A stretch of 59,441 nt of DNA from Patescibacteria group bacterium (GCA_043798935.1 JAZDOC010000010.1:1-59441); one strand, 5' to 3'; shown: positions 1,301-17,452, counted from the stretch's first letter. Numbers and translations: made by a program. Notes: generated by a model from the letters alone, not told the origin.

Positions 1301-2401
1301 ATGGAAAAAATTTATGCTCACGCTCTTAACTTGATTCCCGGCCTTGGCCCCATGCGCATGCGGAAACTTTTGGCTAAATTTAATAATTTTTCGACTATCT
1401 GGCAAGCTGATCGGAATTTATTATTTAACTCCGGATTAAAGAAAAATATTTGCGATCTGCTTTGTGAATATCGTATGCAAATTAACCCGAAACAAGAATT
1501 TGATAAAATTAATTCTGATATCAAACTTTTAACTATTGCTGATAAAAATTATCCGGTTTATTTGAAACAAATATCATCCCCGCCTTTCATATTATATATA
1601 GCCGGCTCTTTAAGCGCATTAAATAACAATGCCCTTGCCGTAGTGGGGAGCAGGGCTATGAGTATTTATGGGCAAAAAGCGTGCACGGATTTAACTACTG
1701 AACTTACAACTAGCGGTCTAACCATTATTAGCGGCCTAGCTCAAGGTATAGACACCATCGCCCATCAAACATGTCTAAACAAGAAAGGCATTACTGTCGC
1801 TGTTTTAGGATCCGGCATTAATAATGAATGTATTTTTCCAGCATATAATCGCAAACTAGCTCGCGAGATTATTCATAATGGCGGCGCTATAATTTCTGAA
1901 TATCCGCCACATTTTAAAGCTGAACGTCAATTCTTTCCGGCCCGTAACCGTATTATTTCCGGATTATCTTTAGGAACATTAGTTATCGAAGCGGCGCAAA
2001 AGTCGGGCGCTCTGATAACCGCTTATAAAGCGCTAGAACAAAACCGTGAAGTTTTTGCCGTACCCGGTGATATTTATTATTCGCGCTCAGTCGGTTGTAA
2101 TTCACTTCTAAAGCGAGGTGCTAAATTAGTTCAAAGTGTTCAAGATATTTTAGATGAGCTTCCGGAAAACGTGCGTTTAAATTTAAAGCTAACTAAAGAT
2201 AATAGCATTAAATCTCAATTAACTGAGTCTGAACAAGAAATAATTAAACTTTTAACCGATGAGCCGCTAGTTATTGACAAGATTATCCAATCATGTAGAC
2301 TAAACAAGTCTTGTGCCTTAAGTGCTATTACAACACTAGAACTTAAAGGAATTATAAAAAACATTAATAATCTTTATATCTTATGGCAAAAAAATTGGTG
2401 A
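1301..2401 (+). CDS. dprA: DNA-processing protein DprA
   Basis: AVVGSR, IISGLAQGID, FPARNRIISGLS, VIEAAQKSGALITA, EVFAVPG motifs; C-terminal winged helix. Confidence 0.97.
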   Translation: MEKIYAHALNLIPGLGPMRMRKLLAKFNNFSTIWQADRNLLFNSGLKKNICDLLCEYRMQINPKQEFDKINSDIKLLTIADKNYPVYLKQISSPPFILYIAGSLSALNNNALAVVGSRAMSIYGQKACTDLTTELTTSGLTIISGLAQGIDTIAHQTCLNKKGITVAVLGSGINNECIFPAYNRKLAREIIHNGGAIISEYPPHFKAERQFFPARNRIISGLSLGTLVIEAAQKSGALITAYKALEQNREVFAVPGDIYYSRSVGCNSLLKRGAKLVQSVQDILDELPENVRLNLKLTKDNSIKSQLTESEQEIIKLLTDEPLVIDKIIQSCRLNKSCALSAITTLELKGIIKNINNLYILWQKNW

Positions 2402-4554
2402 TCGTTGAGTCTCCCACTAAAGCCAGAACGATTAAAAAATTTCTCGGATCCGCCTACCAAATTGAATCTTCATTTGGCCATGTGCGCGATCTTCCTAAAA
2501 GCAAAATGGGTATTGATATTGAACATAATTTTGAACCCAAATATATTATTCCTCTGAAAGCTAAAAAAAATGTTACTCTTTTAAGAAAATTAGCTAAGTC
2601 AGCGAGCGACATTTATCTGGCAACTGACGAAGACCGCGAAGGAGAGGCTATTGCCTGGCATTTAGAACAAATTATCGATGCTCCGGCGGAAAAAATAAAA
2701 CGAGTAGCTTTTCACGAAATTACTAAAAAAGCCGTTGAAAATGCGCTGAAAAATCCTCGTGATATTGATGATAGTTTAGTTGACGCGCAACAAGCACGCC
2801 GAGTTTTAGACCGTTTAGTGGGCTATGAACTCTCGCCTTTTTTATGGAAAAAAATCTATAAAGGATTATCGGCCGGTCGGGTACAATCGGTAGCTGTTAG
2901 ATTAATTGTTGATCGTGAACGTGAACGCCAAGCTTTTAAAACCGATGAATATTGGACAATTGATGCCATGTTTGAAAAAGACGCTCAAGAATTTAAAGCT
3001 ACTTTATATTCTATGGACGGAAAAAAATTAGCTAAATTAGATATTAAGAATAAAGAACAAGCTGATAAGCTTTTAAAAAAATTTACCAAGGCAAAATATC
3101 ACATTGCCCGTGTCGAAATTAAAGATAAAAAACGCCGCGCCGCGCCGCCTTTTACCACATCCACTCTCCAACAAGCAGCAAACAACAAGCTAGGTTTCTC
3201 GGCCAAGCAAACCATGATGTTTGCACAAAAACTTTACGAAACCGGTTTCATTACTTACATGAGAACCGATTCTTTTAATTTATCTGATGATTTTTTAAGT
3301 GGCGCTGAACAATTTATTACGGCTGAGTATGGCGCTGATTACGCTGACCGTAAAGTTTACAAAAGCAAGCAAAAAGGCGCTCAGGAAGCGCATGAAGCTA
3401 TCCGCCCTACAGATGCCAATAATAAACCTGAAAATTTAAAATCAAAATTTGATGATAAGCAATTTAAATTGTACGATTTAATTTGGCGCCGAGCCATGGC
3501 CAGCCAAATGGCTGATGCTGTAATCGGGCAAACTTCTGTTGATATAAACACTACTGACGATTCTTATACTTTCCGCGCTTCGGGTTCAATGATAAAATTT
3601 CCGGGCTGGCTAAAAGTACTACCGGATAATGCCAGCGAAAATATATTACCTGAACTTAATGAACTGGAACAAGTTGATAGTAAAGAAATTAAAGGCGAGC
3701 AACATTTTACCGAGCCACCGGCTCGTTATAGCGAAGCTACCTTGGTTAAAGCGCTGGAAGAAAAAGGCATTGGCCGTCCTTCCACTTACGCGCCTACCAT
3801 TTCAACGATCATTACACGAAAATACGTTACTAAAGAAGATAAAAAATTAAAACCTGAAGAAATTGGATTTATGGTAAACGATTTGTTAGTTGAACATTTT
3901 CCGCAGATTGTTAATTTTGAGTTTACAGCTGAGCTGGAAAAAAATCTGGATGAAATTGCCGAGGGCAAAAAAGAATGGGCCCCGCTAATTAAAGATTTTT
4001 ATGAACCTTTTAAACAAAATCTTATGACTAAAGAACAAGAGATTTCTAAAAGCGATATTATTAAAGAAACAACTGATGAAAAATGTGATAAATGCGGAAT
4101 GCCCATGCAAGTGAAAATGAGCCGATATGGAAAATTCTTGGCATGTACAGGGTACCCGGATTGCAAAAACACTAAACAGCTTGATAGTGAAGGCAATGCC
4201 AGCGAACCGGAAAAATTAGATGAGAAATGCCCAGACTGTGGCAAGCCTCTAGTTCAAAAACGCGGGCGCTATGGAGCTTTTATCGGTTGTTCTGGTTATC
4301 CGGAATGTAAATATATTAAAAAAGAAAAAAAAGGTACAGGCGTGACCTGCCCCTCTTGCGGCAAAGGTGAAATAGTTGCTAAACGTTCCCGTTTTGGCAA
4401 AACGTTTTATGCCTGCGACCAATATCCAGATTGTAAAACCGCTTTTTGGTCTAAACCGACCGGCGAAAAATGCCCCGAGTGCGATTCCTTGCTAGTGGCC
4501 GGAGCTAAAGATACAGTGCAGTGCTCAAATAAGGAATGTAAATTTAAGAAATAA
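2383..4554 (+). CDS. topA: DNA topoisomerase I with C-terminal Zn ribbons
   Basis: LVIVESPTK, ATDEDREGEAI, SAGRVQS, ITYMRTDS; repeated C4 zinc-finger tail. Confidence 0.98.
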   Translation: MAKKLVIVESPTKARTIKKFLGSAYQIESSFGHVRDLPKSKMGIDIEHNFEPKYIIPLKAKKNVTLLRKLAKSASDIYLATDEDREGEAIAWHLEQIIDAPAEKIKRVAFHEITKKAVENALKNPRDIDDSLVDAQQARRVLDRLVGYELSPFLWKKIYKGLSAGRVQSVAVRLIVDRERERQAFKTDEYWTIDAMFEKDAQEFKATLYSMDGKKLAKLDIKNKEQADKLLKKFTKAKYHIARVEIKDKKRRAAPPFTTSTLQQAANNKLGFSAKQTMMFAQKLYETGFITYMRTDSFNLSDDFLSGAEQFITAEYGADYADRKVYKSKQKGAQEAHEAIRPTDANNKPENLKSKFDDKQFKLYDLIWRRAMASQMADAVIGQTSVDINTTDDSYTFRASGSMIKFPGWLKVLPDNASENILPELNELEQVDSKEIKGEQHFTEPPARYSEATLVKALEEKGIGRPSTYAPTISTIITRKYVTKEDKKLKPEEIGFMVNDLLVEHFPQIVNFEFTAELEKNLDEIAEGKKEWAPLIKDFYEPFKQNLMTKEQEISKSDIIKETTDEKCDKCGMPMQVKMSRYGKFLACTGYPDCKNTKQLDSEGNASEPEKLDEKCPDCGKPLVQKRGRYGAFIGCSGYPECKYIKKEKKGTGVTCPSCGKGEIVAKRSRFGKTFYACDQYPDCKTAFWSKPTGEKCPECDSLLVAGAKDTVQCSNKECKFKK

Positions 4555-4566
4555 TACAAAATTAAT

Positions 4567-7500
4567 TTAAGCTGCCTTTGCTTTTAACCACGTCTCATAA
4601 GAGTCTGGAAAAGATTCAGCTATACTAGCTACTTCTAATTCAAATTGTTCAACGTCATGATCGACATTAAATTTTTGTAATGCCTGATTCAATCTTAATG
4701 TACTATCATTACAACTTGAACCATCAAGTTTACGATTATGCGCTACGCCGCTTGGTGGTGGATAATCATTTGATGATCCAACTTGAATATTAAGTTTTTC
4801 ATGAATGCCCTCAGCACACAATAGCCGGACTATTTCGGCCGTGCTAAATGTCCAAGGCACGTCGTATTCTCCTTCTTGATGCAAAAAATCTAAGAATCCG
4901 CCCTCTTGAATAAAGGCTTGCTCTAATTTGAGCGTTAATTCAAAATCTTGATTACCAGTTTTGTTTCTAACACTTTCTGCTAAAACAGCTAAATCTCTAC
5001 CTGTTTGTACACTATCTTTTATTGCAACCGCTTCACTTAACAAAGCAGGTTTAATAATAGAGTATGCTTGAACATCAACTCCTAAGCCAGCTAATACTTC
5101 AACTTTTTGGGAGAAATCATCCCAAGTATAACCTTTAGAGATGGCAATTTCTCTAACTAAATCATTTGAGCTTTCCAAACCAATAGCGATTTGAATTTTT
5201 TGATCAGGTCTAAGAATTGATTGCAACCTCTTAATTTCTTCAACATTAATAAATTCTAAACGCGCTTCAATCATAACGGTTGTAAAAGGCAATTTGGATA
5301 TTTTTTCAAAAATTATAGTTCTGGCTACTGGTGGCATTTCTGCATCATTTAAGAAAGAGCCTGGGGTTAGAATATCAATTTTATACAAATCATTAACATC
5401 AGGATTAGCCCATTTTAATGGCTCTCCTTCCTGTACTCCTAACTGGTCATGTTTCAATGCATATTCGAATTGTTTTTCGATATGTTGAGCAGTTACTTCT
5501 TCATCTGTTGATCCTTCAAAGAAAAAACAACAATTAGCGCACCTTGCATATTCACATCCTTTTTTACCTCTAAATTCAATCATATATCTTTGGCCACCTT
5601 GAGTAGAAGCAAATTCTGTATCTATTGGTTTATGCAAATCTTTTTTTTCTGGCTTTCGATTGACAGCGGTTTCTCTATTATTTTTTCTTTTTTCTAAATA
5701 TACTTTATAAAGTTTAGTCATTTTCATGGCTAGCTCATTATATTCTTGAAAACTCATCACGTCAGATTCACCTGCTAAAAGTTCTGGTACACCTTTTAAA
5801 TTAGCGGCATGATCCCTAAGTTGTTTTTCCAGATTTGCCATTATACCAACATATGCCTTGGGCTTTAATATTCCCTGACCAGTAAATATTTTATCCAAAG
5901 CCGCATGATAAACCTGTAATTTTTGCACATAAGAATAAAATTCATCTAATCTAAAAATGCCGCCGATTTCAAAATTAAATAATACTTCAGCACATTTTTG
6001 CAGTTTAGACGCACATTCTGACGATCTAATTTGAATTTGTTTTACGTCTATTTGTCCATTTTCGGGATAGAGGGCTCTAATAGTTTTAATAGTATCGTAA
6101 AATATTTTTTCAATTTCTCTATAAGTATTCTCAGATTCCATAACTTTATCATATTCTCTTAAAACCATCTCAGCTTGTTCCGGAAACGAATCGTGTACTT
6201 CAAGGAATTGAGCATGTAATTCAGAAAGCCTATCATTATATTGGGCTAATTCATATAATTCAAATAATCCTCCGATTCTTGATTCATGAATTAAAGTTGC
6301 GACCGCAGCTAATTGCTGGCTGATTAATAATGTTTTTTCAGGATCAAAGCTTTGCATATCAGCAGTCAAACTACTAATATGGCTTTCAATTGTAGCTCTA
6401 TTGATTTTTTCTTTCTCTCTTTCTTGAGCTGTTATAGCCTTATCGAGTCGTAGTTTTTTTGCCGATCTAATGTCTATTCGAATATCTTCTATTCTTGCAC
6501 CAGCCTCAAAATTTATACTTACCTCATATTCTTCTCCGGCTCTTAAATCAACTGGCTGTTGTAATTGTATTATTTCATCTTGCCCTAAAAAATCACAGTC
6601 ATTACTTTCAATGATAACGCCGGGGGTTAATTCAATAATACTGGAAATATTAACAGCATTTATAGTTATGCTTTTATCAGCTCTTAAAATTACCACAGCT
6701 TGTCTGGTCAATTCTGTATCTTGTTCAAATACAACAACATCGAACTGAGCTCGAGATGATGCAATACCAACTTCGCCAGACATTTCATTTCTGGCTGCAG
6801 ATCTTGTGTTCATATCAGAGACTGTAGCTAATTCAATGAATGATCTGAATGTTTGCGGAATAATACGTCCACCTCTTTTTAAATATTTTCGCAAATTATT
6901 AACTACTTGCATTTGTGGTTCGACAAATAGTCCAGTATACATATTTTCGCTAATTATAACATCTACTTGTTCTGGAAGCTGCATAGTAGTAGCATCTCCT
7001 TCTAAAATTTCAACTGTATCTGCAAAACCACAATATTCAACAAAAGCATTACAGGCTTTTACGGTTTTTCGATTTATTTCAATCGCATAAACTTTTTTTG
7101 CTCCACAAGCCACCGCCATCATGGCCAATATACCTGTGCCGGCTCCAGCTTCGACTACTGTATCGCCCGGACCAATATTTGCTTGGGTCACCACATCTTG
7201 ACTTCTTATTGTTTCTTTTAAAGCTTGCTGAAATTTTTCTGTTCTAACCGTATCAAAAAAACAACGCCTGGCGTCTTCTGTCGATAAACCCCAACGACCA
7301 TGACTGGTCATCTCTTCCTGATCATCACCCCAATCAACTTGTTCCATTACTTTCAAAAAAATACTACCCATTTCATCAACGGCTTCACTAAAAGGAGTAT
7401 TATATAACAAATCAGATAAATAATCTCTTCTTTGTTCTGGTGTCATTGTTTCAATGCTTTGCGGTTCTTGTCTTTCAAGCACTTCTTGTACTGCACAGGC

Positions 7501-7608
7501 AGCTGTCGCTTCATCAGCATTTTTATCAAGTGGTGATGCTGCTTGATCAGAAACACGCTCGGTCCGCTCTTGTTGGTCTTCTAATTGACTTATATTTTTT
7601 TTAGTCAT
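4567..7608 (-). CDS. Fusion of a class I SAM methyltransferase (PRMT/COG4076-like), a helical linker and a radical SAM domain (TIGR01210/RaSEA-like)
   Basis: Methyltransferase motifs VVEAGAGTGIL, VYAIE, DVIISENMYTGLFVEPQ, GGRIIP. Radical SAM motifs GCEYARCANC, TPGSFLND, IEARLEF, IAIGLESSND...ISKG, AYSIIKP.LLSE..AIKD. Confidence 0.8.
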   Translation of the reverse strand: MTKKNISQLEDQQERTERVSDQAASPLDKNADEATAACAVQEVLERQEPQSIETMTPEQRRDYLSDLLYNTPFSEAVDEMGSIFLKVMEQVDWGDDQEEMTSHGRWGLSTEDARRCFFDTVRTEKFQQALKETIRSQDVVTQANIGPGDTVVEAGAGTGILAMMAVACGAKKVYAIEINRKTVKACNAFVEYCGFADTVEILEGDATTMQLPEQVDVIISENMYTGLFVEPQMQVVNNLRKYLKRGGRIIPQTFRSFIELATVSDMNTRSAARNEMSGEVGIASSRAQFDVVVFEQDTELTRQAVVILRADKSITINAVNISSIIELTPGVIIESNDCDFLGQDEIIQLQQPVDLRAGEEYEVSINFEAGARIEDIRIDIRSAKKLRLDKAITAQEREKEKINRATIESHISSLTADMQSFDPEKTLLISQQLAAVATLIHESRIGGLFELYELAQYNDRLSELHAQFLEVHDSFPEQAEMVLREYDKVMESENTYREIEKIFYDTIKTIRALYPENGQIDVKQIQIRSSECASKLQKCAEVLFNFEIGGIFRLDEFYSYVQKLQVYHAALDKIFTGQGILKPKAYVGIMANLEKQLRDHAANLKGVPELLAGESDVMSFQEYNELAMKMTKLYKVYLEKRKNNRETAVNRKPEKKDLHKPIDTEFASTQGGQRYMIEFRGKKGCEYARCANCCFFFEGSTDEEVTAQHIEKQFEYALKHDQLGVQEGEPLKWANPDVNDLYKIDILTPGSFLNDAEMPPVARTIIFEKISKLPFTTVMIEARLEFINVEEIKRLQSILRPDQKIQIAIGLESSNDLVREIAISKGYTWDDFSQKVEVLAGLGVDVQAYSIIKPALLSEAVAIKDSVQTGRDLAVLAESVRNKTGNQDFELTLKLEQAFIQEGGFLDFLHQEGEYDVPWTFSTAEIVRLLCAEGIHEKLNIQVGSSNDYPPPSGVAHNRKLDGSSCNDSTLRLNQALQKFNVDHDVEQFELEVASIAESFPDSYETWLKAKAA

Positions 7609-7612
7609 ACTA

Positions 7613-8446
7613 TTATAAAAACAAACTATTTATTATCTCTTCAATAGGAGTATTATCTGAGTAAGGTTTGTAGATATGTCCTGAAAAATTAATTAAACCA
7701 CCCCTTAGACACGCTCGTAACAATTCAATGTTCAATTTTCTAAGACCTTTTAATATAGCAGAAATTTCGTTTTTGTCAAGAATAAGCTGAAAATCAAAAA
7801 AAATGCGGAGAATGTCCCAGCGCAATTCTTGATTATAAATGTTAAAAGCCAATTCCTGATAAAAACTTTTCATCAGTGGCTTTAACCCCGGCAAATTACC
7901 AGCTTCAACTTGAACTCCATGATTAATTATGTGTATTTGTTTTTCCGGAACGGCTTTCAAAATCTCTTGCTCCAAAATTAAGGTATATTCTAAAATATAA
8001 AATATTCCAATATTTTGTAAAGTTTCGAAATCGTGAACCTGAATTTGTTCGGGTGTTAATTTTTCAACTTGGTCCGATATCTTTTGTTCCAATATATAAA
8101 ATTCATAAGCTCTCTTTTTAAATTTTTCAGCCATGGAATCCATATACTCAACTTTAGCCAAAAAACCAGGTTTTGTGTTTGGTCCATACAAAGTATCAAG
8201 TTGAGCAAGAGCGCGAGCAAAATAAAATTCATTTAAATAATCCTTGTGGACACTGTCGCTCATTATAGTAACAATTTGATAGGCATGCGTTTTTTGTAAT
8301 TTTTTTTGTTCTAAAGTTTGCAGAAGTCGAGAAATTATTTCTCTTAACTTAATTAAATATTGATTTTGATCTTCTTGCGATAATAATAAAAAAGGTCTGT
8401 CTGAACAAACTTGAGCAAAATCTGTAAAAAAATCTATTGGTATCAT
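7613..8446 (-). CDS. Hypothetical helical protein co-transcribed with the MTase-rSAM fusion
   Basis: 277-aa ORF ending 4 nt before the fusion gene start; no recognised motif. Confidence 0.75.
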   Translation of the reverse strand: MIPIDFFTDFAQVCSDRPFLLLSQEDQNQYLIKLREIISRLLQTLEQKKLQKTHAYQIVTIMSDSVHKDYLNEFYFARALAQLDTLYGPNTKPGFLAKVEYMDSMAEKFKKRAYEFYILEQKISDQVEKLTPEQIQVHDFETLQNIGIFYILEYTLILEQEILKAVPEKQIHIINHGVQVEAGNLPGLKPLMKSFYQELAFNIYNQELRWDILRIFFDFQLILDKNEISAILKGLRKLNIELLRACLRGGLINFSGHIYKPYSDNTPIEEIINSLFL

Positions 8447-8472
8447 AGCCGAAATATGATTAGTATATTTTT

Positions 8473-8501
8473 ATTTTACCTTAATATTCAAAAAAAATCA
8501 A
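8473..8501 (-). promoter_or_regulatory. sigma70-type promoter for the 277-aa/1013-aa gene pair
   Basis: TTGATT-17 nt-TAAAAT on the minus strand. Confidence 0.45.
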
Positions 8502-8511
8502 TTTTTATTTT

Positions 8512-9666
8512 TTAAATTTTCCTTTTTCTTCGGCTGGTTTTTAAAGCAAAACGATGAGCTTCATCTCTAATCTGCAATAATATCTTTTTATTAACTTGAG
8601 CCAATTTTTTAAATGATTCATTGGCAGTTTTTGGAAAAACTAATTTATCATTCTGATATTTAGAAATGCCGACAAACGGCACGTGTACAGAAATCTTATT
8701 AAACACTTCGGCCATAAAATCAATTTGCGGACGACCGCCATCGATCATAATTAAATCCGGCTGCGGCCATTCGGGATGATTAAATCTTCTAGTTAAAACT
8801 TCAGCCAGAGCTCTTAAATCATCAGCCTGGTAATGATTTTTTATTTTAAATAAACGATACTCGGACTTATCGGTTGTGCCGTTTACAAAAACAACCATAG
8901 AACCATAAGCTTCTTTGCCACTGAAATGCGATATATCATAGCCCTCAATACGATTAAAATTAGAGCCGACCAGTTCATCGGTGACGGTTAAAGTGGTATC
9001 ATTTATTTTAGACAAAGCCACAGCTTGTTCAGGGTTATCAATCATTAATTTTTTTATCAATCTCTTTTTCTTGCCTGAAAACAATAAAATTATATTTTTA
9101 ATATTCTTTTTATATTCTCGACTATTTATCATACCCACGCAAACACCGGGACATTGGCCGATTTGATAATCAAAACAAGCTTTTCCGGAATCAGGCCTGC
9201 ATAAACTATATGGAAAAATGCGACGAATTATTTTTAAAGCTTTTTTAAATAATCCGGTATTTTGAAAAGGTCCGAATTTTGCTAAAGGCTCGGGAAAATT
9301 TTTTAACTCGCGACCATGAACAATTAATACTTTCGAGAATTTTTCGGATGTAATGATTAAATATGAAAATGACTTATCATCTTTTTCTTTAACATTATAT
9401 TTGGGCCAGTGCTTCTTAATTAAATTAGCTTCTAAAATTATAGCGTCTAATACTGTTTCTGTGGTTTCATATTCAATGGTTTTAGCCAGGGAAATCATTT
9501 CGGCAATTCGAGGCGAAATATTTTTTTGAAAATAATTTAAAACTCGTTGGCGCAAAACCGTGGCCCGTCCAATATAAAGAATTTCTCCTCGGCTATTTAA
9601 ATATCTATAAACACCGGGTTTAAGAGGAAATTTTTTGGCTTGAAATTTTAGATTCATTTTAAACAT
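8512..9666 (-). CDS. uvrC: Short excinuclease subunit C (GIY-YIG plus RNase H-like domain, no HhH tail)
   Basis: PGVY...LYIGRA..LRQRV, PKYN, four-Cys region, RIEGYDISH, PDLIMIDGG, LLQIRDEAHRFA then stop. Confidence 0.9.
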   Translation of the reverse strand: MFKMNLKFQAKKFPLKPGVYRYLNSRGEILYIGRATVLRQRVLNYFQKNISPRIAEMISLAKTIEYETTETVLDAIILEANLIKKHWPKYNVKEKDDKSFSYLIITSEKFSKVLIVHGRELKNFPEPLAKFGPFQNTGLFKKALKIIRRIFPYSLCRPDSGKACFDYQIGQCPGVCVGMINSREYKKNIKNIILLFSGKKKRLIKKLMIDNPEQAVALSKINDTTLTVTDELVGSNFNRIEGYDISHFSGKEAYGSMVVFVNGTTDKSEYRLFKIKNHYQADDLRALAEVLTRRFNHPEWPQPDLIMIDGGRPQIDFMAEVFNKISVHVPFVGISKYQNDKLVFPKTANESFKKLAQVNKKILLQIRDEAHRFALKTSRRKRKI

Positions 9667-12149
9667 TCATTTAAATATAAGCCTGTATAGCTATCGTTCA
9701 CTCGAACTATGTCTTCGGGCATGCCTTTGGCAATAATCTTGCCGCCCCGATCACCGCCTTCCGGACCCATGTCGATTATGTAATCGCAACATTTTATTAA
9801 ATGCAAATTATGCTCAATCACCACCACGCTGTGTCCGGCTGCCACTAATTTTTGTAAAACTTTTATTAACAACTGTAGATCATCATAATGCAATCCCACT
9901 GTTGGTTCGTCGAATAAATAAAGCACGCGCTTATTTAATGGCAACGCCAGCTCTTTACCTAATTTCACTCTCTGTGCTTCCCCGCCTGATAATGTCGGGG
10001 CTGATTGGCCTAGCCTTATATAACCTAAACCCACTTCTTCTAAAACTTTTAGTTTATCGGTAATGAACGGTATTTCCGAGAAGAATTTCAATGCTTGAGA
10101 AATCGTCATGTTTAATACATCGGCGATATTTTTATGTTTATACTTAACCTGCAAAGTTTCACGATTATAACGCTGTCCGTGGCACACATTGCATTTCACC
10201 CACACAGCCGGTAAAAAATGCATTTCTATCATATTGTACCCCACACCATTGCAAGCTTCACAGCGGCCACCGCTTACATTAAAAGAAAAACGGCTGGGTT
10301 TATAAGCTCGTTCACGCGCTGACGGCAACTCGGCAAAAAACTCTCTGACTGGTGTAAATATTCCCGTATATGTGGCAGGATTAGAACGGGGTGTGCGCCC
10401 GATCGGCGATTGATTAACCATGACCGCTTTAGTAAGATATTCCGCGCCTTCTAATTTTTTAATATTAGCGAATTTAACCGGACGCTGATTTTTTACTTTC
10501 TGAAAATTATGATACAGAATATGATGCAATAAGGTAGACTTACCTGAACCGGAAACACCCGTAATACACACTAATCGTTGCAGTGGAATTTCAACATTTA
10601 AATTTTTTAGATTGTGTTTGGTGGCTCCCTGGATTTTTATGAATCCATGATTTTGTTTGCGACGCAAAGTTGGCACAATAATTTTTTTATTACCGCGCAA
10701 ATATTCTAATGTTGAAGAAGATTGCTGATTATCTTTTTTTAATAAATCTTTTATCTCTCCCTGAGCTACTACCAAACCGCCATGTTCACCAGCCCCGGGG
10801 CCAAGATCAACTAAATAATCGGCTTCATTAATAGTTAATTCGTCATGTTCAACCACTATTAAAGTATTATGATTATTCTTTAATGTTTTTATGGTTTTAA
10901 TAAGCTTGTCAGTATCGCGCTCATGCAGACCAATAGTGGGCTCGTCTAATACATACAAAGCACCAGACAATTGGGTGCCAATTTGTGAAGCCAAGCGAAT
11001 TCTTTGCGCTTCCCCGCCCGATAATGTTTCGGCCGATCGCGCGAGAGTAATATAATCCAGCCCCACTTCATTTAAAAAGTTTAGGCGTTCTTGAATCTCT
11101 TTCAAAGGATTAATGGCGATTTTAACTTTATACTGTGGCAACTTGTCCATATAATCTTTAAAAAAATCCTGTGCTTGTTTTAAATTCAGAGCTGTAATTT
11201 GAAAGATGTTTTTATTTTTTATTTTTATGGATAAACTTTCAGGCTTCAATCTTTTACCTTGGCACGCCGGACAAATAGTGTTTTTGTGCCATTCCATTTT
11301 ACCTAGTCCCATGCAATTTGGGCACGCCCCGAACGGGCTGTTAAAAGAAAAAAGTCGCGGTTCAATTTCACCATATGAAAAACCATCATGAGGGCAATTC
11401 CATTGGCTAGATAATAAAAATTCCTCTTTACCCATAATTATTATTACCAACCCCTGGCTATAATCTAAAGCTTGCTCTACGGCGTCGTATAATCTGGTTT
11501 CTTCAAAATTAGCCAGCTCATCAACTACTATTTCTATATCGTGTTTTTTATTTCGTGCTAAAATTATTTTCTGATTTAAGGATTTTATGCTTCCGTCAAT
11601 CCGTGCAGTTTCATAACCTAAATTTAAATAATCATAAAGTAATTGGTAATATTCGCCTTTGCGCCCGCGAACTACCGGTGACAAAATTTTAATATTTTCA
11701 TTTTTATAATTAGCTTTTTTTTCATTAATAAAATCCACCATTTCATCGATAGTCATTTTATCTAGTTTGGATCCGCACTGTGGGCAATACACTTCACCTA
11801 ATCGAGCGAATAATACTCTTAAATAATCGTAAATCTCGGTAAGCGTTCCAACCGTCGAACGCGGATTATGAGAAAGCGCTTTTTGATTAATTGCAATGGC
11901 CGGTGACAAACCTGTTATTTCATCCACATCCGGTCGATCCATCTGCCCCAGAAACTGACGAATATAAGGAGAAAGCGATTCAATGTAACGACGCTGTCCT
12001 TCGGCAAAAATAGTATCAAAAGCCAGAGTCGATTTACCTGATCCGGAAACACCAGTAAAAACAATGATTTTATTTTTGGGCAGCTCTAAATTAATATCTT
12101 GCAAATTATGCATGCGCGCGCCTCTGATTTTAATTATATTTTCCTGCAT
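9654..12149 (-). CDS. uvrA: Excinuclease ABC subunit A (compact, 831 aa)
   Basis: Two GVSGSGKST Walker A motifs, two LSGGEAQR signatures, Zn fingers. Confidence 0.97.
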   Translation of the reverse strand: MQENIIKIRGARMHNLQDINLELPKNKIIVFTGVSGSGKSTLAFDTIFAEGQRRYIESLSPYIRQFLGQMDRPDVDEITGLSPAIAINQKALSHNPRSTVGTLTEIYDYLRVLFARLGEVYCPQCGSKLDKMTIDEMVDFINEKKANYKNENIKILSPVVRGRKGEYYQLLYDYLNLGYETARIDGSIKSLNQKIILARNKKHDIEIVVDELANFEETRLYDAVEQALDYSQGLVIIIMGKEEFLLSSQWNCPHDGFSYGEIEPRLFSFNSPFGACPNCMGLGKMEWHKNTICPACQGKRLKPESLSIKIKNKNIFQITALNLKQAQDFFKDYMDKLPQYKVKIAINPLKEIQERLNFLNEVGLDYITLARSAETLSGGEAQRIRLASQIGTQLSGALYVLDEPTIGLHERDTDKLIKTIKTLKNNHNTLIVVEHDELTINEADYLVDLGPGAGEHGGLVVAQGEIKDLLKKDNQQSSSTLEYLRGNKKIIVPTLRRKQNHGFIKIQGATKHNLKNLNVEIPLQRLVCITGVSGSGKSTLLHHILYHNFQKVKNQRPVKFANIKKLEGAEYLTKAVMVNQSPIGRTPRSNPATYTGIFTPVREFFAELPSARERAYKPSRFSFNVSGGRCEACNGVGYNMIEMHFLPAVWVKCNVCHGQRYNRETLQVKYKHKNIADVLNMTISQALKFFSEIPFITDKLKVLEEVGLGYIRLGQSAPTLSGGEAQRVKLGKELALPLNKRVLYLFDEPTVGLHYDDLQLLIKVLQKLVAAGHSVVVIEHNLHLIKCCDYIIDMGPEGGDRGGKIIAKGMPEDIVRVNDSYTGLYLNECLK

Positions 12150-12155
12150 AAATCT

Positions 12156-13994
12156 TTAATCGGTAATTAATAAATCTTCAATTTTCTTTTTAATGGTTTT
12201 CGGAGTAATGTGATTTTTTTTATTATATGCCAATTGCTTTTTACGACGGCGTTCGACTTCTTGAACCGCTCGGGCTAGTGAACCAGTCACACGATCGGCA
12301 TACAAAATAATTTTACCTTTTACGTTACGTGCGGCTCGCCCCATGGTTTGAATTAAAGAAGTTTGACTGCGTAGAAAACCTTCTCGGTCGGCATCAAAAA
12401 TTGCCACCAGCGTAACTTCAGGTAAGTCTAACCCTTCGCGTAATAAATTTACACCAATTAATATATCAAATTCTCCTTGTCGAAAGCTGGTCAGAATCTC
12501 AGTGCGTTCAATCGTCTTAGTACCGGAATGCATCCAACGCGCCCGATACCCTTTTTGTATTAAAAAATCACTAAAATCTTCAGCCATTTTTTTAGTCAGA
12601 GTATTAACTAAAGCGCGTTCTTTGTTTAAAACTATGTTATCAAGCTCTTTCATTAAATCATCAACTTGCGAAATATTATTCTTTATATCAAGAACAGGTC
12701 TAATGTCTATCACTGGATCAACTAAGCCCGTAGGCCTAATAATTTGTTCTACAATCTGCCGAGATTTTTCTTTTTCCCAGTCAGCCGGTGTGGCCGACGT
12801 AAATATAGCCGAGCCTATTCGCTCTGAAAATTCTGCAAAATTTAAGGGACGATTATCAAGCGCCGACGGTAACCGCCAACCATGATCCACTAATGTTTGT
12901 TTTCGACTACGATCACCGGCATACATACCGCGCACCTGTGGCACAGCAATATGCGATTCATCAATAATAGTTAAAAAGTCGGGTTGATTATTTTTTTTGG
13001 AAAAATATGCCAGAAGTGTATCGGGTGGCTCCCCGGCGCTTTTTCCTAATAAGTGCCGGGAATAATTTTCAATGCCATTACAATAACCAAGTGTTTTTAA
13101 CATTTCCATATCATATTTGATTCGTCTTTTTATTCTCTCAGCTTCAAGTAATTTTTGACGCTTTTTAAAATAAGCGATTCGCTCCTTGGCTTCTTGTTTG
13201 ATATTTCTAATGGCTGTCTTGTTATCATAAGAAACAAAATGTTTAGTGGGAAAAATCAAAATTTCTTTGAGTTGTTCTTTAATCTTTCTGGTGGTTGCAT
13301 CCATAACCCATAATTCCTGCAATTTATTTTTAATCAGTTTAAAACGATAAATAAACGGTGATTCTGCCGGCATTATTTCAAATACATCACCCCGCAAACG
13401 AAACTCACCCCGGCTCATTTCTCCTTTGGTTCTTAAAAATTGCATTTTAATCAAATTTTTGATTAGCTGAGTGCGATCGAATTCTTTGTCGACCTGTAAA
13501 GTTAAAGCTCCTTCATAATAATTTTCCGGCAAGCCAAGATTATATATGCATGATACTGAAGCGACAATAATTACATCGCGACGTGTGACCAAAGCGCTCG
13601 TGGCTTGATGACGTAAACGATCAATTTCCTGATTAATCATGGCTTCTTTTTCTATGTAAGTATCAGTAATGGGAAGATATGCTTCGGGCTGATAATAGTC
13701 GTAATACGACACAAAATAATTAACGCTATTATCAGGAAAGTAATTTTTATATTCTCGATACAGTTGAGCGGCCAAAGTTTTATTCGGCGCTAAAACCAAA
13801 ACCGGCTTATCTTGACTGGCAATAACATTAGCCATGATAAAAGTTTTGCCAGACCCGGTTACGCCCAAAAGCGTTTGAAAATCAAAGCCCTTTTTTACAC
13901 CACTGTTAAGCTTGTTTATGGCTTGGGGCTGGTCGCCGGCCGGTTGATAATGAGATTTTAATTTAAATAATGCCATTTTTATTGAATCATTCAA
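12156..13994 (-). CDS. uvrB: Excinuclease ABC subunit B lacking the C-terminal UVR domain; start may be the ATG at 13976
   Basis: GDQP, LLGVTGSGKT, YYDYYQPEAY, IDESH, NLLREGLDLPEV, GRAARN. Confidence 0.97.
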   Translation of the reverse strand: MNDSIKMALFKLKSHYQPAGDQPQAINKLNSGVKKGFDFQTLLGVTGSGKTFIMANVIASQDKPVLVLAPNKTLAAQLYREYKNYFPDNSVNYFVSYYDYYQPEAYLPITDTYIEKEAMINQEIDRLRHQATSALVTRRDVIIVASVSCIYNLGLPENYYEGALTLQVDKEFDRTQLIKNLIKMQFLRTKGEMSRGEFRLRGDVFEIMPAESPFIYRFKLIKNKLQELWVMDATTRKIKEQLKEILIFPTKHFVSYDNKTAIRNIKQEAKERIAYFKKRQKLLEAERIKRRIKYDMEMLKTLGYCNGIENYSRHLLGKSAGEPPDTLLAYFSKKNNQPDFLTIIDESHIAVPQVRGMYAGDRSRKQTLVDHGWRLPSALDNRPLNFAEFSERIGSAIFTSATPADWEKEKSRQIVEQIIRPTGLVDPVIDIRPVLDIKNNISQVDDLMKELDNIVLNKERALVNTLTKKMAEDFSDFLIQKGYRARWMHSGTKTIERTEILTSFRQGEFDILIGVNLLREGLDLPEVTLVAIFDADREGFLRSQTSLIQTMGRAARNVKGKIILYADRVTGSLARAVQEVERRRKKQLAYNKKNHITPKTIKKKIEDLLITD

Positions 13995-14109
13995 TTAACA
14001 CAAAATTCCCAAGAGTTTGACCTCTAGGGGGCACTAGGCATTATAAAGCAAGCATTAAGCTTAGTCAAAATTGCCAAAAATATATATTTTAACTACAATG
14101 TATTAAGCT

Positions 14110-15579
14110 ATGAGAATATACGATTTAATCGAAAAAATTGAGGAAAAGAAACTAGATGTTAATCTAGATACTATTAAATTGGCTTATGATTACGCTGACC
14201 AGGCACATCAGGGTCAGCTTCGAAAATCTGGCGAACCATATATTAATCATCCTCTGGCCACGGCTTACAAACTAGCCGATATGAATATGGATGAAACTAC
14301 CATCGTGGCCGGAATACTACATGATGTTCCTGAAGATACAGATAAAACTTTAAAAGATGTAAAAAAAGAATTCGGTGCCGATGTAGCACAATTAGTAAGC
14401 GGCATCACTAAATTAGGCCAAGTTAAATACCGCGGCATGGAAAGATACATGGAAAATTTACGCCGCATGTTTGTTGCCATGGCTAAAGATATTCGCGTAA
14501 TTGTAATTAAATTTGCTGATCGTATTCATAATTTAGAAACTTTATCAGCTCTAATGCCCGATAAACAACGCCGAATTGCTTTAGAAAGTTTGGAAATTTA
14601 TGCGCCGATTGCTAACCGATTGGGCATGGGTGAAATTAAAGGTACGTTAGAAGATTTATCCTTTGCTTATGTTTATCCCAAAGAATCTGAATGGGTGCAA
14701 AATAAAATCGCTTCACAGCGACGGAATAAGGAAAAACTAGTGAACAAAAACATCAAAGAAATTAGTAAAATTCTTGATAAAAATAATATAAAATATCTAT
14801 CCATTCACGGCCGTGCAAAACATTTATACAGCTTATATAAAAAACTGCTCGAGCACAACCGTGACTTTTCTAAAATTTATGATTTAGAGGCCATTAGAAT
14901 TGTTGTTCCTTCAATTTCGGGTTGTTATGAATGCTTAGGCATGATTCACCAATACTATCGCCCGTTAAAAGGTCGAATTAAAGATTACATCGCTCAACCC
15001 AAACCTAACGGCTACCAATCACTGCATACTACTATTTTTACTCCCGACGGCGATATTATTGAAGTTCAAATTAGATCACAACAAATGCATTTTGAAGCCG
15101 AGTATGGTATTGCCGCCCACTGGACATACAAAGAAAATAACTCCTCTATTAAAGATAAAATCAATTGGGTAAACGAATTATCTCGCGCTTTCGGTAATAT
15201 GGAAGACGTTAGTGAAGAAAAGTATCTGGAATCCTTAAAGCTGGATATTTTTCAAAATCGAATATTTGCTTTTACACCCAAAGGTGATGTTATTGAACTT
15301 CCTGAAGACGCCACGCCTATTGATTTTGCATATCACATTCATACTGAAATCGGGCACTATTGTTCCGGTGCTAAAATTAATGATCAAATCGTTTCGCTGT
15401 CGGCTAAACTACAAAGTGGCGACGTGGTTGAAATTCACACCGACAAAAAACGTAAAGGCCCCAGCGAAGATTGGTTAACATTTGTTAAAACTACCACGGC
15501 CAGAAGAAACATTAAAATCTTTTTACGTAAAAATAAAACTCGTTTAATAGATAAATTATTAAGAAAAGAAACCGATTAG
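14110..15579 (+). CDS. rel: RelA/SpoT-family (p)ppGpp synthetase/hydrolase (HD-SYNTH-TGS, no ZFD/ACT)
   Basis: RKSGEPY..HP, LHDVPEDT, KDYIAQPKPNGYQSLHT, EVQIRS, FTPKG TGS domain. Confidence 0.95.
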   Translation: MRIYDLIEKIEEKKLDVNLDTIKLAYDYADQAHQGQLRKSGEPYINHPLATAYKLADMNMDETTIVAGILHDVPEDTDKTLKDVKKEFGADVAQLVSGITKLGQVKYRGMERYMENLRRMFVAMAKDIRVIVIKFADRIHNLETLSALMPDKQRRIALESLEIYAPIANRLGMGEIKGTLEDLSFAYVYPKESEWVQNKIASQRRNKEKLVNKNIKEISKILDKNNIKYLSIHGRAKHLYSLYKKLLEHNRDFSKIYDLEAIRIVVPSISGCYECLGMIHQYYRPLKGRIKDYIAQPKPNGYQSLHTTIFTPDGDIIEVQIRSQQMHFEAEYGIAAHWTYKENNSSIKDKINWVNELSRAFGNMEDVSEEKYLESLKLDIFQNRIFAFTPKGDVIELPEDATPIDFAYHIHTEIGHYCSGAKINDQIVSLSAKLQSGDVVEIHTDKKRKGPSEDWLTFVKTTTARRNIKIFLRKNKTRLIDKLLRKETD

Positions 15580-16448
15580 TTATTAATCTTATTAATTATA
15601 TTTTTTAATTCCTGTGCTGAATAGTATTCAATAAAGATGGTTCCACCATCGCCTTCTGGTTTGATGGAAATTTTCGTTTGTAATTTTTCACTAAGCTCAT
15701 CTTGCCAAGCTATAATTTGCGGATCTTGATAGGTAATTTTTTTACCTCTTTTATGAGCTCCGGGGTTACTATCAATTGCACTTTCCAGTTCGCGAACTGA
15801 AAGATTATTAGCAGTTATTTTTGTTAAGAAAGCCATTTGCATTCTTTCATTTGGGATACCCATGATTACTTTGGCGTGTCCTTCAGAAATTTTATTTTCA
15901 GCCAAGGCTTTTTGAATTTCGGCCGGCAAGCTTAATAATCGTATGGCATTAGCAAAAGCCGATCGAGAGATGCCAACTTTTTTAGCTGCTTCATCTTGAG
16001 TTAATCCAAATTCATGAACTAATTTTTTATAGCCTTCAGCTTTTTCAATCGGGTCTAAATCGGATCTTTGAATATTTTCAATTAAAGCCAGCTCTAGCTT
16101 TTCCAAATTAGATGCTTGGCGCACAATCACTGGTACTTTTTGTAAACCAGCAATTTTAGCGGCTCGTAATCGCCTTTCTCCGGCAATTAATTCATACCCG
16201 TCGTCAGCTAGGGTAACAATTAACGGTTGTAAGATCCCGTGTTCTTTAATGGAATTTATTAAGTCTTCCAAATCTTGATGACGGAAATTTTTTCGTGGCT
16301 GTTGCGGATTAACTGAAATTTCGCTGATACTAATTTCATTACTTTGAAATTTAGACTCGTTTGTTTCGGCGGCGCGAACCTGATTCTGAATATTAATAGC
16401 GTTATTTCGAATTGGAATTAATGATCCTAAACCTTTACCTAAAGACAT
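15576..16448 (-). CDS. parB: ParB/Spo0J partition protein
   Basis: LGKGLGSLI, QPRK, GILQPLIV, LIAGERRLRA, LIENIQRSDL, HTH. Confidence 0.96.
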   Translation of the reverse strand: MSLGKGLGSLIPIRNNAINIQNQVRAAETNESKFQSNEISISEISVNPQQPRKNFRHQDLEDLINSIKEHGILQPLIVTLADDGYELIAGERRLRAAKIAGLQKVPVIVRQASNLEKLELALIENIQRSDLDPIEKAEGYKKLVHEFGLTQDEAAKKVGISRSAFANAIRLLSLPAEIQKALAENKISEGHAKVIMGIPNERMQMAFLTKITANNLSVRELESAIDSNPGAHKRGKKITYQDPQIIAWQDELSEKLQTKISIKPEGDGGTIFIEYYSAQELKNIINKINN

Positions 16449-17366: not shown

Positions 17367-17452
17367 GCCGAAGTGGCGGAATTGGTAGACGCACACGACT
17401 CAAAATCGTGCGGGCTTTGCTCATGAGAGTTCGATTCTCTCCTTCGGCACCA
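17367..17452 (+). tRNA. tRNA-Leu (CAA), long variable arm, encoded CCA
   Basis: GCCGAAG/CTTCGGC acceptor stem, GGAATTGGTAGAC D-arm, CACGA-CTCAAAA-TCGTG anticodon arm, GAGAGTTCGATTCTCTC T-arm. Confidence 0.97.

Follow-up and report, generated by a model that had tools for sequence, protein, structure and literature searches.

P0001, a protein of 1013 residues encoded at 4567..7608 on the minus strand of the window (the whole 59,441-nucleotide stretch of DNA that was analysed), has a new architecture built from known superfamilies: a PRMT-superfamily N-methyltransferase module, a family-specific helical domain and a radical-SAM domain of the RaSEA/QueL clade. Our main reading, to which we give a probability of about 0.55, is that it would combine radical C-N-type chemistry with N-methylation on one nitrogen-rich cationic substrate. 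The fusion was new to the initial annotation, and we likewise found no description of a PRMT-like methyltransferase joined to a RaSEA-like radical-SAM domain in the literature searched.

A two-gene locus and a small family

Both open reading frames of the initial annotation are present, the 1013-residue frame with its stop codon at 4567-4569 and the 277-residue frame of P0002 at 7613..8446 (minus strand), which translates into an all-helical protein. The 4-nt gap reported between them is confirmed as TAGT (7609..7612, minus strand), running from the P0002 stop codon to the P0001 ATG, and the motifs claimed for the larger frame were all located where they had been placed. The smaller gene had also been given a promoter of its own. 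Promoter-like hexamers do exist 5' of P0002 (TTGATT-17-TAAAAT and TTGAAT-18-TATACT, 8462..8501, minus strand, by consensus match only); however, the 16 sites counted equal the chance expectation of 16.4 ± 4.1 in shuffles, so this promoter is not supported. The N-terminal ~50 residues of P0001 (7459..7608, minus strand) are acidic, weakly conserved and modelled with low confidence (AF2 pLDDT 42-64). They were the sole basis for proposing a host-directed protein, a proposal that nothing else supports. Each domain is acidic in all family members, and P0001 itself has a net charge of -53 and a pI of 4.8.

An assembly chimera, raised earlier as a possible objection, is excluded because five full-length homologues with the same architecture (48-51% identity, 1013-1034 residues) occur in other assemblies, from NCBI, JGI, ENA and Logan sources; the architecture is also present in three fetched loci. 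The source genome, a draft of 24 contigs with 90% completeness, might be taken to favour a chimera, gene decay or a wrongly called frame. Against this, the domain order and junctions are conserved in the five homologues, P0001 has no internal stops, the catalytic motifs are invariant and the AF2 model reaches a pTM of 0.76, making any such artefact exceedingly improbable.

The family is very rare: it occurs in ~1-Mb genomes titled as candidate-phyla-radiation groups and was absent from 400 other genomes sampled in the phylum. Short forms of ~690 residues, 38-43% identical to the fused forms, consist of the helical and radical-SAM domains; these two domains are the conserved family core, to which the methyltransferase module has been added in one sub-clade. 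In the helical domain (residues 384-662; 5623..6459, minus strand), 44 columns are invariant in fused and short forms alike (alignment A6), and the helices of the AF2 model span residues 394-642, with pLDDT mostly above 90. Searches found no sequence relative in the PDB (best E 0.25) and no match in the Atlas. It is confined to three clusters among 1.84 billion representatives, and within the loci its HMM matched family members only. This middle domain of ~280 residues was absent from the initial annotation.

P0002 has no match in Pfam, NCBIfam, PADLOC or PHROG, yet it is not the orphan it was taken for: 13 other proteins are homologous to it, and a family member adjoins the fused gene in all three independent fused lineages (L013, L014/L018 and L020), in either a tandem or a convergent arrangement. 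These lineages are ~50% identical to one another and their other neighbours differ. Four short-form genomes have neither the methyltransferase module nor P0002. The AF2 model of P0002 is confident (pLDDT 93.5, pTM 0.88) and matches only generic helical bundles (Z up to 9.4). The protein contains a single invariant arginine, R209. Orthologues of P0002 also occur where the enzyme is absent, as in G005, whose genome is 98% complete (59% identity), an observation that was counted against our best explanation.

A radical-SAM domain related to RaSEA and QueL

The radical-SAM domain (residues 663-1013; 4570..5622, minus strand) was assigned from TIGR01210, VIA and profile searches. The motif CEYARCANCC at 685-694 supplies the CX4CX2C cysteines C685, C690 and C693, predicted to bind the cluster, together with the invariant C694 (5527..5556, minus strand), and is followed by GSFLND (750-755), IGLESSND (809-816), ISKG (823-826) and KPALLSE (853-859). 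The cysteine triad and the GSF, ESR-E, GLES, NKG, Y, KP, E and D motifs are conserved (alignment A4); the triad, as C-x(n)-C-x2-C, and the GSF, ESR-E, GLES, NKG, KP, E and D motifs are common to P0001 and RaSEA/TIGR01210. No match to Pfam Radical_SAM was found in P0001. The sole NCBIfam match of the domain is TIGR01210, at residues 683-995 (E 2.9e-42), where it scores 145 bits against a curated cut-off for the RaSEA equivalog of 212.15 bits. Short forms score 105-107 bits, and the cut-off is reached by 7 of the 31 relatives scanned (214.5-253 bits, 300-364 residues). RaSEA relatives are standalone proteins of ~300-365 residues, whereas this domain sits within a protein of 1013. In 28 aligned sequences the RaSEA family has four C-terminal cysteines (C..C ... 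CxC) conserved to 90% or more; of these P0001 retains only C966, and the same three are missing from P0031 and all family members of alignment A1. The earlier assignment to TIGR01210 stands as the only NCBIfam match, with a score below the RaSEA cut-off and the four-cysteine motif lost.

The top fold match in VIA is queuine lyase, QueL (6p78_A; Z 16.7, rmsd 3.7, 226 of 230 residues aligned), a Z only ~1 above that of biotin synthase. A profile built from this domain and 27 standalone relatives also retrieved QueL first among PDB sequences (6p78, 7.7e-16, limited to the N-terminal ~160 positions) and then Elp3 (9e-6), whereas the P0001 domain alone had no match at E ≤ 1. QueL, its best relative by both fold and profile, is a single-domain enzyme of ~250 residues, in contrast to the three modules of P0001. 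Elp3 resembles P0001 in having two catalytic domains, one of them radical SAM (fold Z 12.9), but its second is a GNAT acetyltransferase rather than a methyltransferase, it lacks the helical middle domain and its sequence relation is weak. The TIGR01210-like superfamily is large and varied, with 831 clusters, TIR fusions and histidine-kinase neighbours. Since the P0001 domain scores 134 bits to its nearest non-family relatives and 145 to the RaSEA model, its specificity may differ from theirs.

Both QueL and RaSEA take a carbon substituent off a nitrogen that is bound to 7-deazaguanine. RaSEA converts preQ0-Lys to G+, acting in complex with ArcS on preQ0-Lys-tRNA (PMC11298593), and QueL regenerates preQ1 from queuine (PMC11130926). 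That P0001 might be RaSEA with extra domains, working in archaeosine synthesis, is suggested by TIGR01210 being its best and sole radical-SAM family match. RaSEA is archaeal and ArcS-dependent, whereas the host of P0001 is bacterial and carries Tgt (485 bits) and QueA (434 bits), on contigs other than the window's. A single TGT-family (PF01702) match was found in the 90%-complete draft and no second, ArcS-type one; QueA belongs to the bacterial queuosine route. We rejected RaSEA identity, a most improbable one, because of the sub-threshold score, the lost four-cysteine motif and the failure to find an ArcS-type second TGT-family match in that draft. The initial annotation had considered archaeosine synthesis unlikely for want of arcS and tgt; that judgement and the absence of tgt from the window hold, but Tgt is present elsewhere in the genome.

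A PRMT-like methyltransferase module

The methyltransferase module (residues 60-383; 6460..7431, minus strand) was recognised by Pfam, PDB profile search, Foldseek and VIA. Both catalytic domains, this one and the radical-SAM domain, are real, as first claimed, and each retains its cofactor motifs. VEAGAGTG (152-159) and the acidic post-I motif GAKKVYAIE (169-177) form invariant columns in an 18-sequence alignment (A5). The double-E loop of PRMTs, in which two glutamates eight residues apart hold the guanidinium, has a counterpart in SENMYTGLFVEPQ at 220-232: its stretch E221...E230 (SENMYTGLFVE; 6919..6948, minus strand) aligns with SEWMGYGLLHE of PRMT6, and E221 and E230, which correspond to the PRMT6 glutamates, show conservation of at least 90% across the 18 sequences. 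The module also keeps D-x-x-R-T in its N-terminal helices, GxGTG and AKKVYxxE.

Pfam places residues ~120-255 among class I methyltransferase families (Methyltransf_25, 2.2e-10; PrmA, 1.3e-8), and PRMT5 matches at 25.9 bits (cut-off 22.9). In the PDB profile search PRMTs were the best 60 of 84 matches, with PRMT6 at 1.9e-19, and this result, with the alignment of both glutamates, bears out the PRMT-like character proposed initially. Foldseek returned PRMTs in all 47 matches listed (ranks to 50), over 314-360 columns at E ~1e-11. VIA aligned PRMTs over residues 87-389 with Z 11.2-14.6 and an rmsd of ~8 Å on a low-confidence model (pLDDT 40-90). A beta-barrel follows the Rossmann fold, as judged from AF2 strands at 243-382 and Foldseek alignment to whole PRMT cores. 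Rossmann fold, barrel, D-x-x-R-T, GxGTG, GA(K/R)KVYAVE and both glutamates are shared with the eukaryotic type I PRMTs (PRMT6, CARM1 and PRMT1), at an identity of about 20%; unlike these enzymes, the module is fused to two further domains. Two named PRMT features, the THW loop and the dimerisation arm, differ: CDFLGQDE replaces the THW stretch of the PRMT6 rows, and the arm region is a gap in P0001 and its close relatives (A5 columns ~273-300), where PRMT rows have ~20-30 residues more.

Standalone relatives of the module fall at 44-53% identity over 90-96% of residues 60-395 (P0178-P0182) and at 28-39% (P0183-P0193, with Pacearchaeota and Bathyarchaeota records among them). The closest are prokaryotic 'predicted RNA methylase' proteins of ~280 residues, the group that the initial annotation called COG4076, and standalone copies of 348-368 residues, which share the double-E loop but have neither helical nor radical-SAM domain; to our knowledge none has been characterised. 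Every characterised PRMT known to us acts on protein arginine, a point counted against our best explanation.

Proposed reaction and alternatives

P0001 would be a functional enzyme that uses SAM at two sites and belongs to a small family with no characterised member. We infer that the [4Fe-4S]/SAM domain (C685, C690, C693) would generate a 5'-deoxyadenosyl radical and, in the manner of RaSEA and QueL, use it for C-N chemistry of the lyase type on an amine or amidine bearing an N-substituent. The PRMT-like module (E221/E230) might then methylate that substrate on an amine or amidine nitrogen, and P0002 might serve the methyltransferase-bearing forms as an accessory protein or specificity partner. 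N-methylation is suggested by the relatives of the module, which are N-directed (PRMTs and stretches in NRPS-type proteins). Because all domains are acidic in all members, a cationic substrate fits better than an RNA polymer. Our leading guess, held tentatively, is a 7-deazaguanine-type base or nucleoside, small and cationic, which as a precursor of queuosine or archaeosine would be salvaged or remodelled; a protein side chain follows closely as the next candidate. We favour 7-deazaguanine since both characterised radical-SAM relatives, RaSEA and QueL, process its N-adducts. Alongside Tgt and QueA the genome shows no more than a partial QueC match (25.7 bits), so its 7-deazaguanine precursors must come from outside. 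Tgt is present in all six family-bearing genomes, a co-occurrence that is uninformative given 264 of 301 in the phylum.

Several further observations were counted against the 7-deazaguanine proposal. It leaves the methyltransferase without a known job; no genes of 7-deazaguanine metabolism were found near any of the 10 loci examined; and the lack of a PDB match for the radical-SAM domain alone, the variety of its superfamily and the narrow lead of QueL over biotin synthase were included as well. A bolder version, which we consider rather unlikely, is that the family makes or salvages a new modified base or side chain by radical C-N lysis of the RaSEA/QueL type, coupled within one polypeptide to PRMT-type methylation of the amidine or amine set free. 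An N-methylated 7-deazaguanine resembling archaeosine or preQ1 is one conceivable product, and P0002 would then represent a novel type of specificity subunit. If true, this would add a new branch to the 7-deazaguanine biology of ultra-small bacteria, and a PRMT-fold enzyme would for the first time have a substrate other than a protein.

Other substrates have to be weighed against a 7-deazaguanine base. The N-directed signature and acidity of the enzyme would suit a different small metabolite with an amine or guanidine group (arginine, agmatine, a polyamine, an amino acid or a cofactor precursor), as would the varied radical-SAM superfamily, the absence of pathway neighbours and the further matches of the module to stretches in adenylation-domain (NRPS-type) proteins (E ~1e-10). 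However, no biosynthetic cluster surrounds any member, ~1-Mb genomes of this kind are not known to have much secondary metabolism and nothing indicates a particular metabolite; we hold this unlikely. We are equally sceptical of action on a nucleic-acid polymer, where the target base in tRNA, rRNA or DNA might be a hypermodified 7-deazaguanine. RaSEA, Elp3 and MnmL/YtqA (TIGR01212, the second match of two relatives) are tRNA enzymes, and JGI labels two relatives of the module (P0184 and P0258) 'predicted RNA methylase'. The PADLOC mad2 model matches P0001 at 74.8 bits over residues 117-261 only; mad2 is predicted to be the DNA methylase in the MADS defence system (bioRxiv 10.1101/2023.03.30.534895). 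In a raw count, 7 of 10 loci have a gene for DNA repair or nucleotide metabolism no more than two genes away from the family member. A polymer is disfavoured by the acidity of all three domains, the single TGT-family gene in the draft genome, and searches that found no recognisable RNA- or DNA-binding domain (Pfam, NCBIfam), no DPPY/NPPY-type motif in the module and no other MADS-type genes nearby (domain search of the neighbours, which are uvrC, topA and P0002).

A protein-modifying enzyme, in which the PRMT-like module would methylate arginine or lysine and the radical-SAM domain alter the same or a nearby side chain of either P0002 (through R209) or a basic protein, is conceivable though doubtful. 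The characterised radical-SAM relatives act on nucleobases, the THW and dimerisation-arm regions depart from PRMTs, and P0002 is mildly acidic and not an RGG-type target. P0002 is also an unlikely radical-SAM substrate, because the short-form genomes lack it although the short forms retain 38-43% identity and the 44 invariant helical columns. Modification of a protein is nevertheless consistent with the acidity of the enzyme, with its intact double-E loop and with PRMTs as the best relatives of the module among solved structures. P0002 is, moreover, the one conserved neighbour of methyltransferase-bearing forms, and its orthologues persist without the enzyme, as would a substrate with a function of its own.

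The P0001-P0002 locus and the methyltransferase module

The window makes up contig 3 of the host genome, a 24-contig assembly of 1.09 Mb that is 90% complete; sampled relatives of the same class have genomes of 0.7-1.3 Mb. On the reverse strand, the ORF of the 277-aa helical protein P0002 (7613-8446) precedes that of the 1013-aa enzyme P0001 (4567-7608), and only the four bases TAGT separate them, in agreement with the two-gene unit and 4-nt gap described in the initial annotation. Pfam and NCBIfam assignments place uvrC, uvrA and uvrB upstream of the pair and the convergent topA and dprA downstream. At 384 aa, UvrC (8512-9666) is short for its 574-position model, of which it matches two stretches, GIY-YIG and the RNase H-like domain; the 489-aa RelA/SpoT (14110-15579) aligns with no more than positions 1-453 of the 687 in its model. 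Both proteins are trimmed, as would suit a reduced genome. The sole Rfam match at gathering level in the window is a tRNA (17367-17449, forward strand, 59.5 bits).

Pfam detected class I methyltransferase families at residues ~120-255 of P0001, with PRMT5 barely over its cut-off. A profile of the P0001 family (alignment A1) matched 84 PDB sequences, of which the best 60 were all PRMTs, headed by PRMT6 (1.9e-19) and followed by CARM1 and PRMT1, 3, 7, 2, 5, 8 and 9. In this comparison SENMYTGLFVE of P0001 aligned on SEWMGYGLLHE of PRMT6, such that both glutamates of the double-E loop coincide. We also aligned the module with standalone relatives and PRMTs (A5, 18 sequences). The GxGTG and AKKVYxxE motifs and D157 are invariant; D-x-x-R-T and both glutamates reach at least 90% conservation. 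In contrast to eukaryotic PRMTs, P0001 has CDFLGQDE in place of the THW stretch and a gap at the dimerisation-arm region. The N-terminal module is a member of the PRMT superfamily in which the guanidinium-binding hallmark is intact and two features of eukaryotic PRMTs are missing. When the whole-protein AF2 model was searched with Foldseek, all 47 matches listed (ranks to 50) were PRMTs, over 314-360 columns at E ~1e-11. VIA superposed residues ~87-389 on PRMTs with Z of 11.2-14.6 and an rmsd of ~8 Å, the latter because the model is weak in this module (pLDDT 40-90). Profile matches, fold matches and the paired glutamates all support the original reading of a class I methyltransferase with PRMT-like traits.

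The nearest standalone relatives of the module are 348-368-aa copies with 44-53% identity, one of them on an 81.9-kb contig. These are followed by ~280-aa proteins named 'predicted RNA methylase' by JGI, some in Pacearchaeota and Bathyarchaeota records, and then by eukaryotic PRMT6 and CARM1. To our knowledge, this prokaryotic PRMT-like family has no assigned function. PHROGs gave only weak methyltransferase matches (E of at least 8.6e-4). The PADLOC model mad2 scored 74.8 bits at residues 117-261 (window 6823-7258), above every Pfam methyltransferase family; mad2 is described as the predicted DNA methylase of the MADS defence system (bioRxiv 10.1101/2023.03.30.534895). No DPPY-type motif was found in the module sequence.

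The radical-SAM and helical domains

TIGR01210, the NCBIfam model of the archaeosine enzyme RaSEA, matched residues 683-995 at 2.9e-42 and 145 bits. The TIGR01210 match expected from the motifs is therefore present, but it falls under the 212.15-bit cut-off of the model, and Pfam Radical_SAM had no match on P0001. Aligning the domain with 27 standalone relatives (A4) gave a cluster motif of C-x(4-12)-C-x2-C; the CX4CX2C noted initially in P0001 falls within this pattern and recurs in several relatives. The GSF, E-R-E, GLES, KG, Y, KP, E and D positions are conserved throughout. In contrast, of the four C-terminal cysteines of the RaSEA family, at least 90% conserved in A4, P0001 and its whole family keep one.

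As a single query against PDB sequences the radical-SAM domain had no match, whereas the A4 profile retrieved the queuine lyase QueL (PDB 6p78) at 7.7e-16, far before Elp3 at 9e-6. The same structure was the top VIA match of the P0001 model (Z 16.7, rmsd 3.7, 226/230 residues aligned), followed by biotin synthase (Z 15.6), MqnE, ThiH and others. RaSEA and QueL are, as far as we know, the sole characterised members of a radical-SAM clade of at least 831 sequence clusters. RaSEA is described as converting preQ0-Lys in tRNA to archaeosine, active only in complex with ArcS (PMC11298593), and QueL as regenerating preQ1 from queuine (PMC11130926). Both thus strip a carbon substituent off a nitrogen on a 7-deazaguanine.

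Between the two catalytic modules, residues 394-642 form long helices in the AF2 model (pLDDT mostly >90). An exhaustive search with residues 384-1013 against 1.84 billion representatives returned 831 clusters at E <= 1e-3 and six at <= 1e-30. The helical part was matched in only three of these, P0007 (fused to the methyltransferase), P0008 (676 aa) and P0030 (690 aa), beyond which the score drops from 308 to 134 bits. Across nine fused and short (helical plus radical-SAM) members the domain has 44 invariant columns. Its profile found no relative among PDB sequences (best E 0.25), and the Atlas yielded no match. The idea that P0002 is a free copy of this domain was ruled out by an hhalign probability of 1.1%.

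Scanning genome contigs with P0001 alone gave no relative; the A1 alignment gave seven loci. Over the loci of two collections we observed the fused architecture of ~1015 aa (L013, L014 and L020, with L018 cut), the short architecture of 684-727 aa (L015-L017 and L022-L024) and a 428-aa radical-SAM-only form (L019/L025). In a quick IQ-TREE search of 28 rows of our choosing, with SH-aLRT support, the radical-SAM domains of the family form a clade (99) with ~590-625-aa proteins as sister; within it, fused forms branch with P0008 (89) and short with radical-SAM-only forms (94). The family was not found among the genomes of 60 relatives, nor among 400 others sampled evenly across the phylum, in which the two matches were 337-344-aa generic TIGR01210-like proteins. 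Homologue loci carry the titles Peregrinibacteria, Magasanikbacteria, Parcubacteria and 'Patescibacteria group'. Two (L013 and L016) come from ~1.0-1.1-Mb MAGs titled 'uncultured Gammaproteobacteria', a label that may be wrong; the other family records bear candidate-phyla-radiation names. One homologue has just the automatic JGI label 'radical SAM enzyme (TIGR01210 family)'. Both superfamilies are already known; we found no description in the searchable literature of the fusion itself, the three-module architecture, the helical domain, the loss of cysteines or the partnership with P0002.

Association of P0002 with the fused enzymes

P0002 matched no family in Pfam, NCBIfam, PADLOC or PHROGs, but it is not the orphan it was first taken for, having 13 homologues. 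Its model is all-helical (pLDDT 93.5). Foldseek found no match in PDB or BFVD at E <= 0.001, VIA returned only generic helical bundles (Z <= 9.4, residues ~115-275), and comparison with the Atlas, where its model is poor (pLDDT 0.40), gave no usable feature match. A Qng1/DUF2419-type queuosine hydrolase (Foldseek row with E 1.0, TM 0.14) was dropped as a candidate, the chain being absent from the 50 best VIA rows.

A P0002-family gene directly adjoins the fused gene, tail-to-tail, in L013, L014 (identical to L018) and L020; the arrangement in the window differs, with P0002 in tandem upstream of P0001. Pairwise identity is ~50% among the fused proteins of the window, L013 and L014, and 87% between those of L014 and L020, so that three independent fused lineages and two arrangements are represented. 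No other neighbour is common to the fused loci. Four short-form genomes contain neither an orthologous methyltransferase module nor, by the A3 profile, a P0002 homologue. P0002 relatives do occur in five of the 60 relatives that lack a P0001-type enzyme, including G005 (59% identity, 98% complete). The association thus runs in one direction: a P0002 accompanies every fused enzyme, and P0002 proteins can do without one. Because short forms retain the same core without it, a role of P0002 on the methyltransferase side (substrate, adaptor or regulator) is more likely than one on the radical-SAM side.

In G005, contig 26 is syntenic with window 1301-16448 (dprA-topA ... uvrC-uvrA-uvrB-relA/spoT-parB, 52-72% identity), with peroxiredoxin-like and Fur-like ORFs in place of P0001 and P0002 and no remnant of the pair by tblastn at E <= 10. 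Its P0002 orthologue lies on another contig beside an integrase. The syntenic locus has an extra 232-aa ORF between uvrC and uvrA. For these genes the window resembles G005, labelled 'same order', far more than it does the four genomes labelled 'same family' (UvrC 61% vs 35-37%). Elsewhere in the host genome (contig 10, 163-8573), four tandem paralogous proteins of 510-532 aa, 35-41% identical and with treble-clef zinc-finger matches, are directly followed by a 286-aa P0002 paralogue overlapping the last of them. In G026, the P0002 homologue has a 406-aa relative of these proteins nearby.

Candidate substrates

The analysis establishes which domains P0001 contains, that their cofactor motifs are intact, how the family is structured and that the neighbour is conserved. 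By analogy with its relatives, we consider it somewhat better than an even chance (about 0.55) that P0001 would combine radical C-N-lyase-type chemistry, as in the RaSEA/QueL clade, with N-methylation by the PRMT fold, both acting on a single cationic substrate rich in nitrogen. All domains of all family members are acidic (P0001 has a pI of 4.8 and a net charge of -53), a charge more easily reconciled with a cationic substrate than with direct contact to polymeric RNA or DNA. The leading candidate for the substrate, itself at less than even odds, is a 7-deazaguanine-type base or nucleoside, the class on which both characterised relatives act. The host genome encodes Tgt (485 bits) and QueA (434 bits); for QueC it has just a partial match of 25.7 bits and for QueF a weakly similar ORF, a gene content that suggests probable import of 7-deazaguanine precursors. 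Tgt is present in 6/6 family-bearing genomes vs 264/301 genomes of the phylum, so its co-occurrence does not discriminate, and no queuosine-related gene lies beside any family member at the loci examined.

Only slightly less probable is an arginine or lysine side chain of a protein, with P0002 itself the target or an adaptor. The PRMT hallmarks and the constant presence of P0002 beside fused enzymes are consistent with this, and a complex prediction of P0001 residues 50-392 with P0002 (score 0.00, mark 0.32) weighs neither way on binding. We regard a base within an RNA or DNA polymer as unlikely given the acidity of the family; on its side are the mad2 match and the genes around the enzymes. 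DNA-repair or nucleotide-metabolism genes lie at most two genes away in 7/10 family loci (the window, L013-L017, L019, L020, L022 and L023), a count for which no background rate was computed; they comprise uvrC/topA, class II RNR with RuvB, RecO, NUDIX, Maf, DHFR with dCMP and dCTP deaminases, and UvrD. Another small amine or guanidine, also in line with the acidity of the enzyme, is an equally unlikely candidate. Canonical RaSEA function is very improbable: the TIGR01210 match is set against the loss of three of four cysteines. An artefactual fusion seems just as remote, with fused forms recurring in three lineages.

The fusion is a natural 'Rosetta stone' that joins the chemistry of the RaSEA/QueL clade with N-methylation of the PRMT type and with a conserved partner whose fold is unrecognised. 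Once known, the substrate would give the prokaryotic PRMT-like family a function and test the use of the double-E loop on amidines other than that of arginine. A new route of modification or salvage in minimal-genome bacteria might also come to light. As P0001 is compact, with motifs intact and a defined partner, the question is directly testable.

Among the wider TIGR01210-like radical-SAM proteins, P0074, P0098, P0104 and P0121 are fused to TIR domains at the N-terminus (TIR_2 in Pfam, up to 4e-25; PADLOC TIR models), which suggests that some members of this superfamily may work in defence or signalling. In three of four loci examined, such genes, standalone or N-extended, adjoin a 7TM-receptor histidine kinase (HisKA_7TM): L048 5746-7383, L049 5670-6707 and L050 5654-6676, from the same-phylum genomes G044 and G125. 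Two of these three also contain a response regulator.
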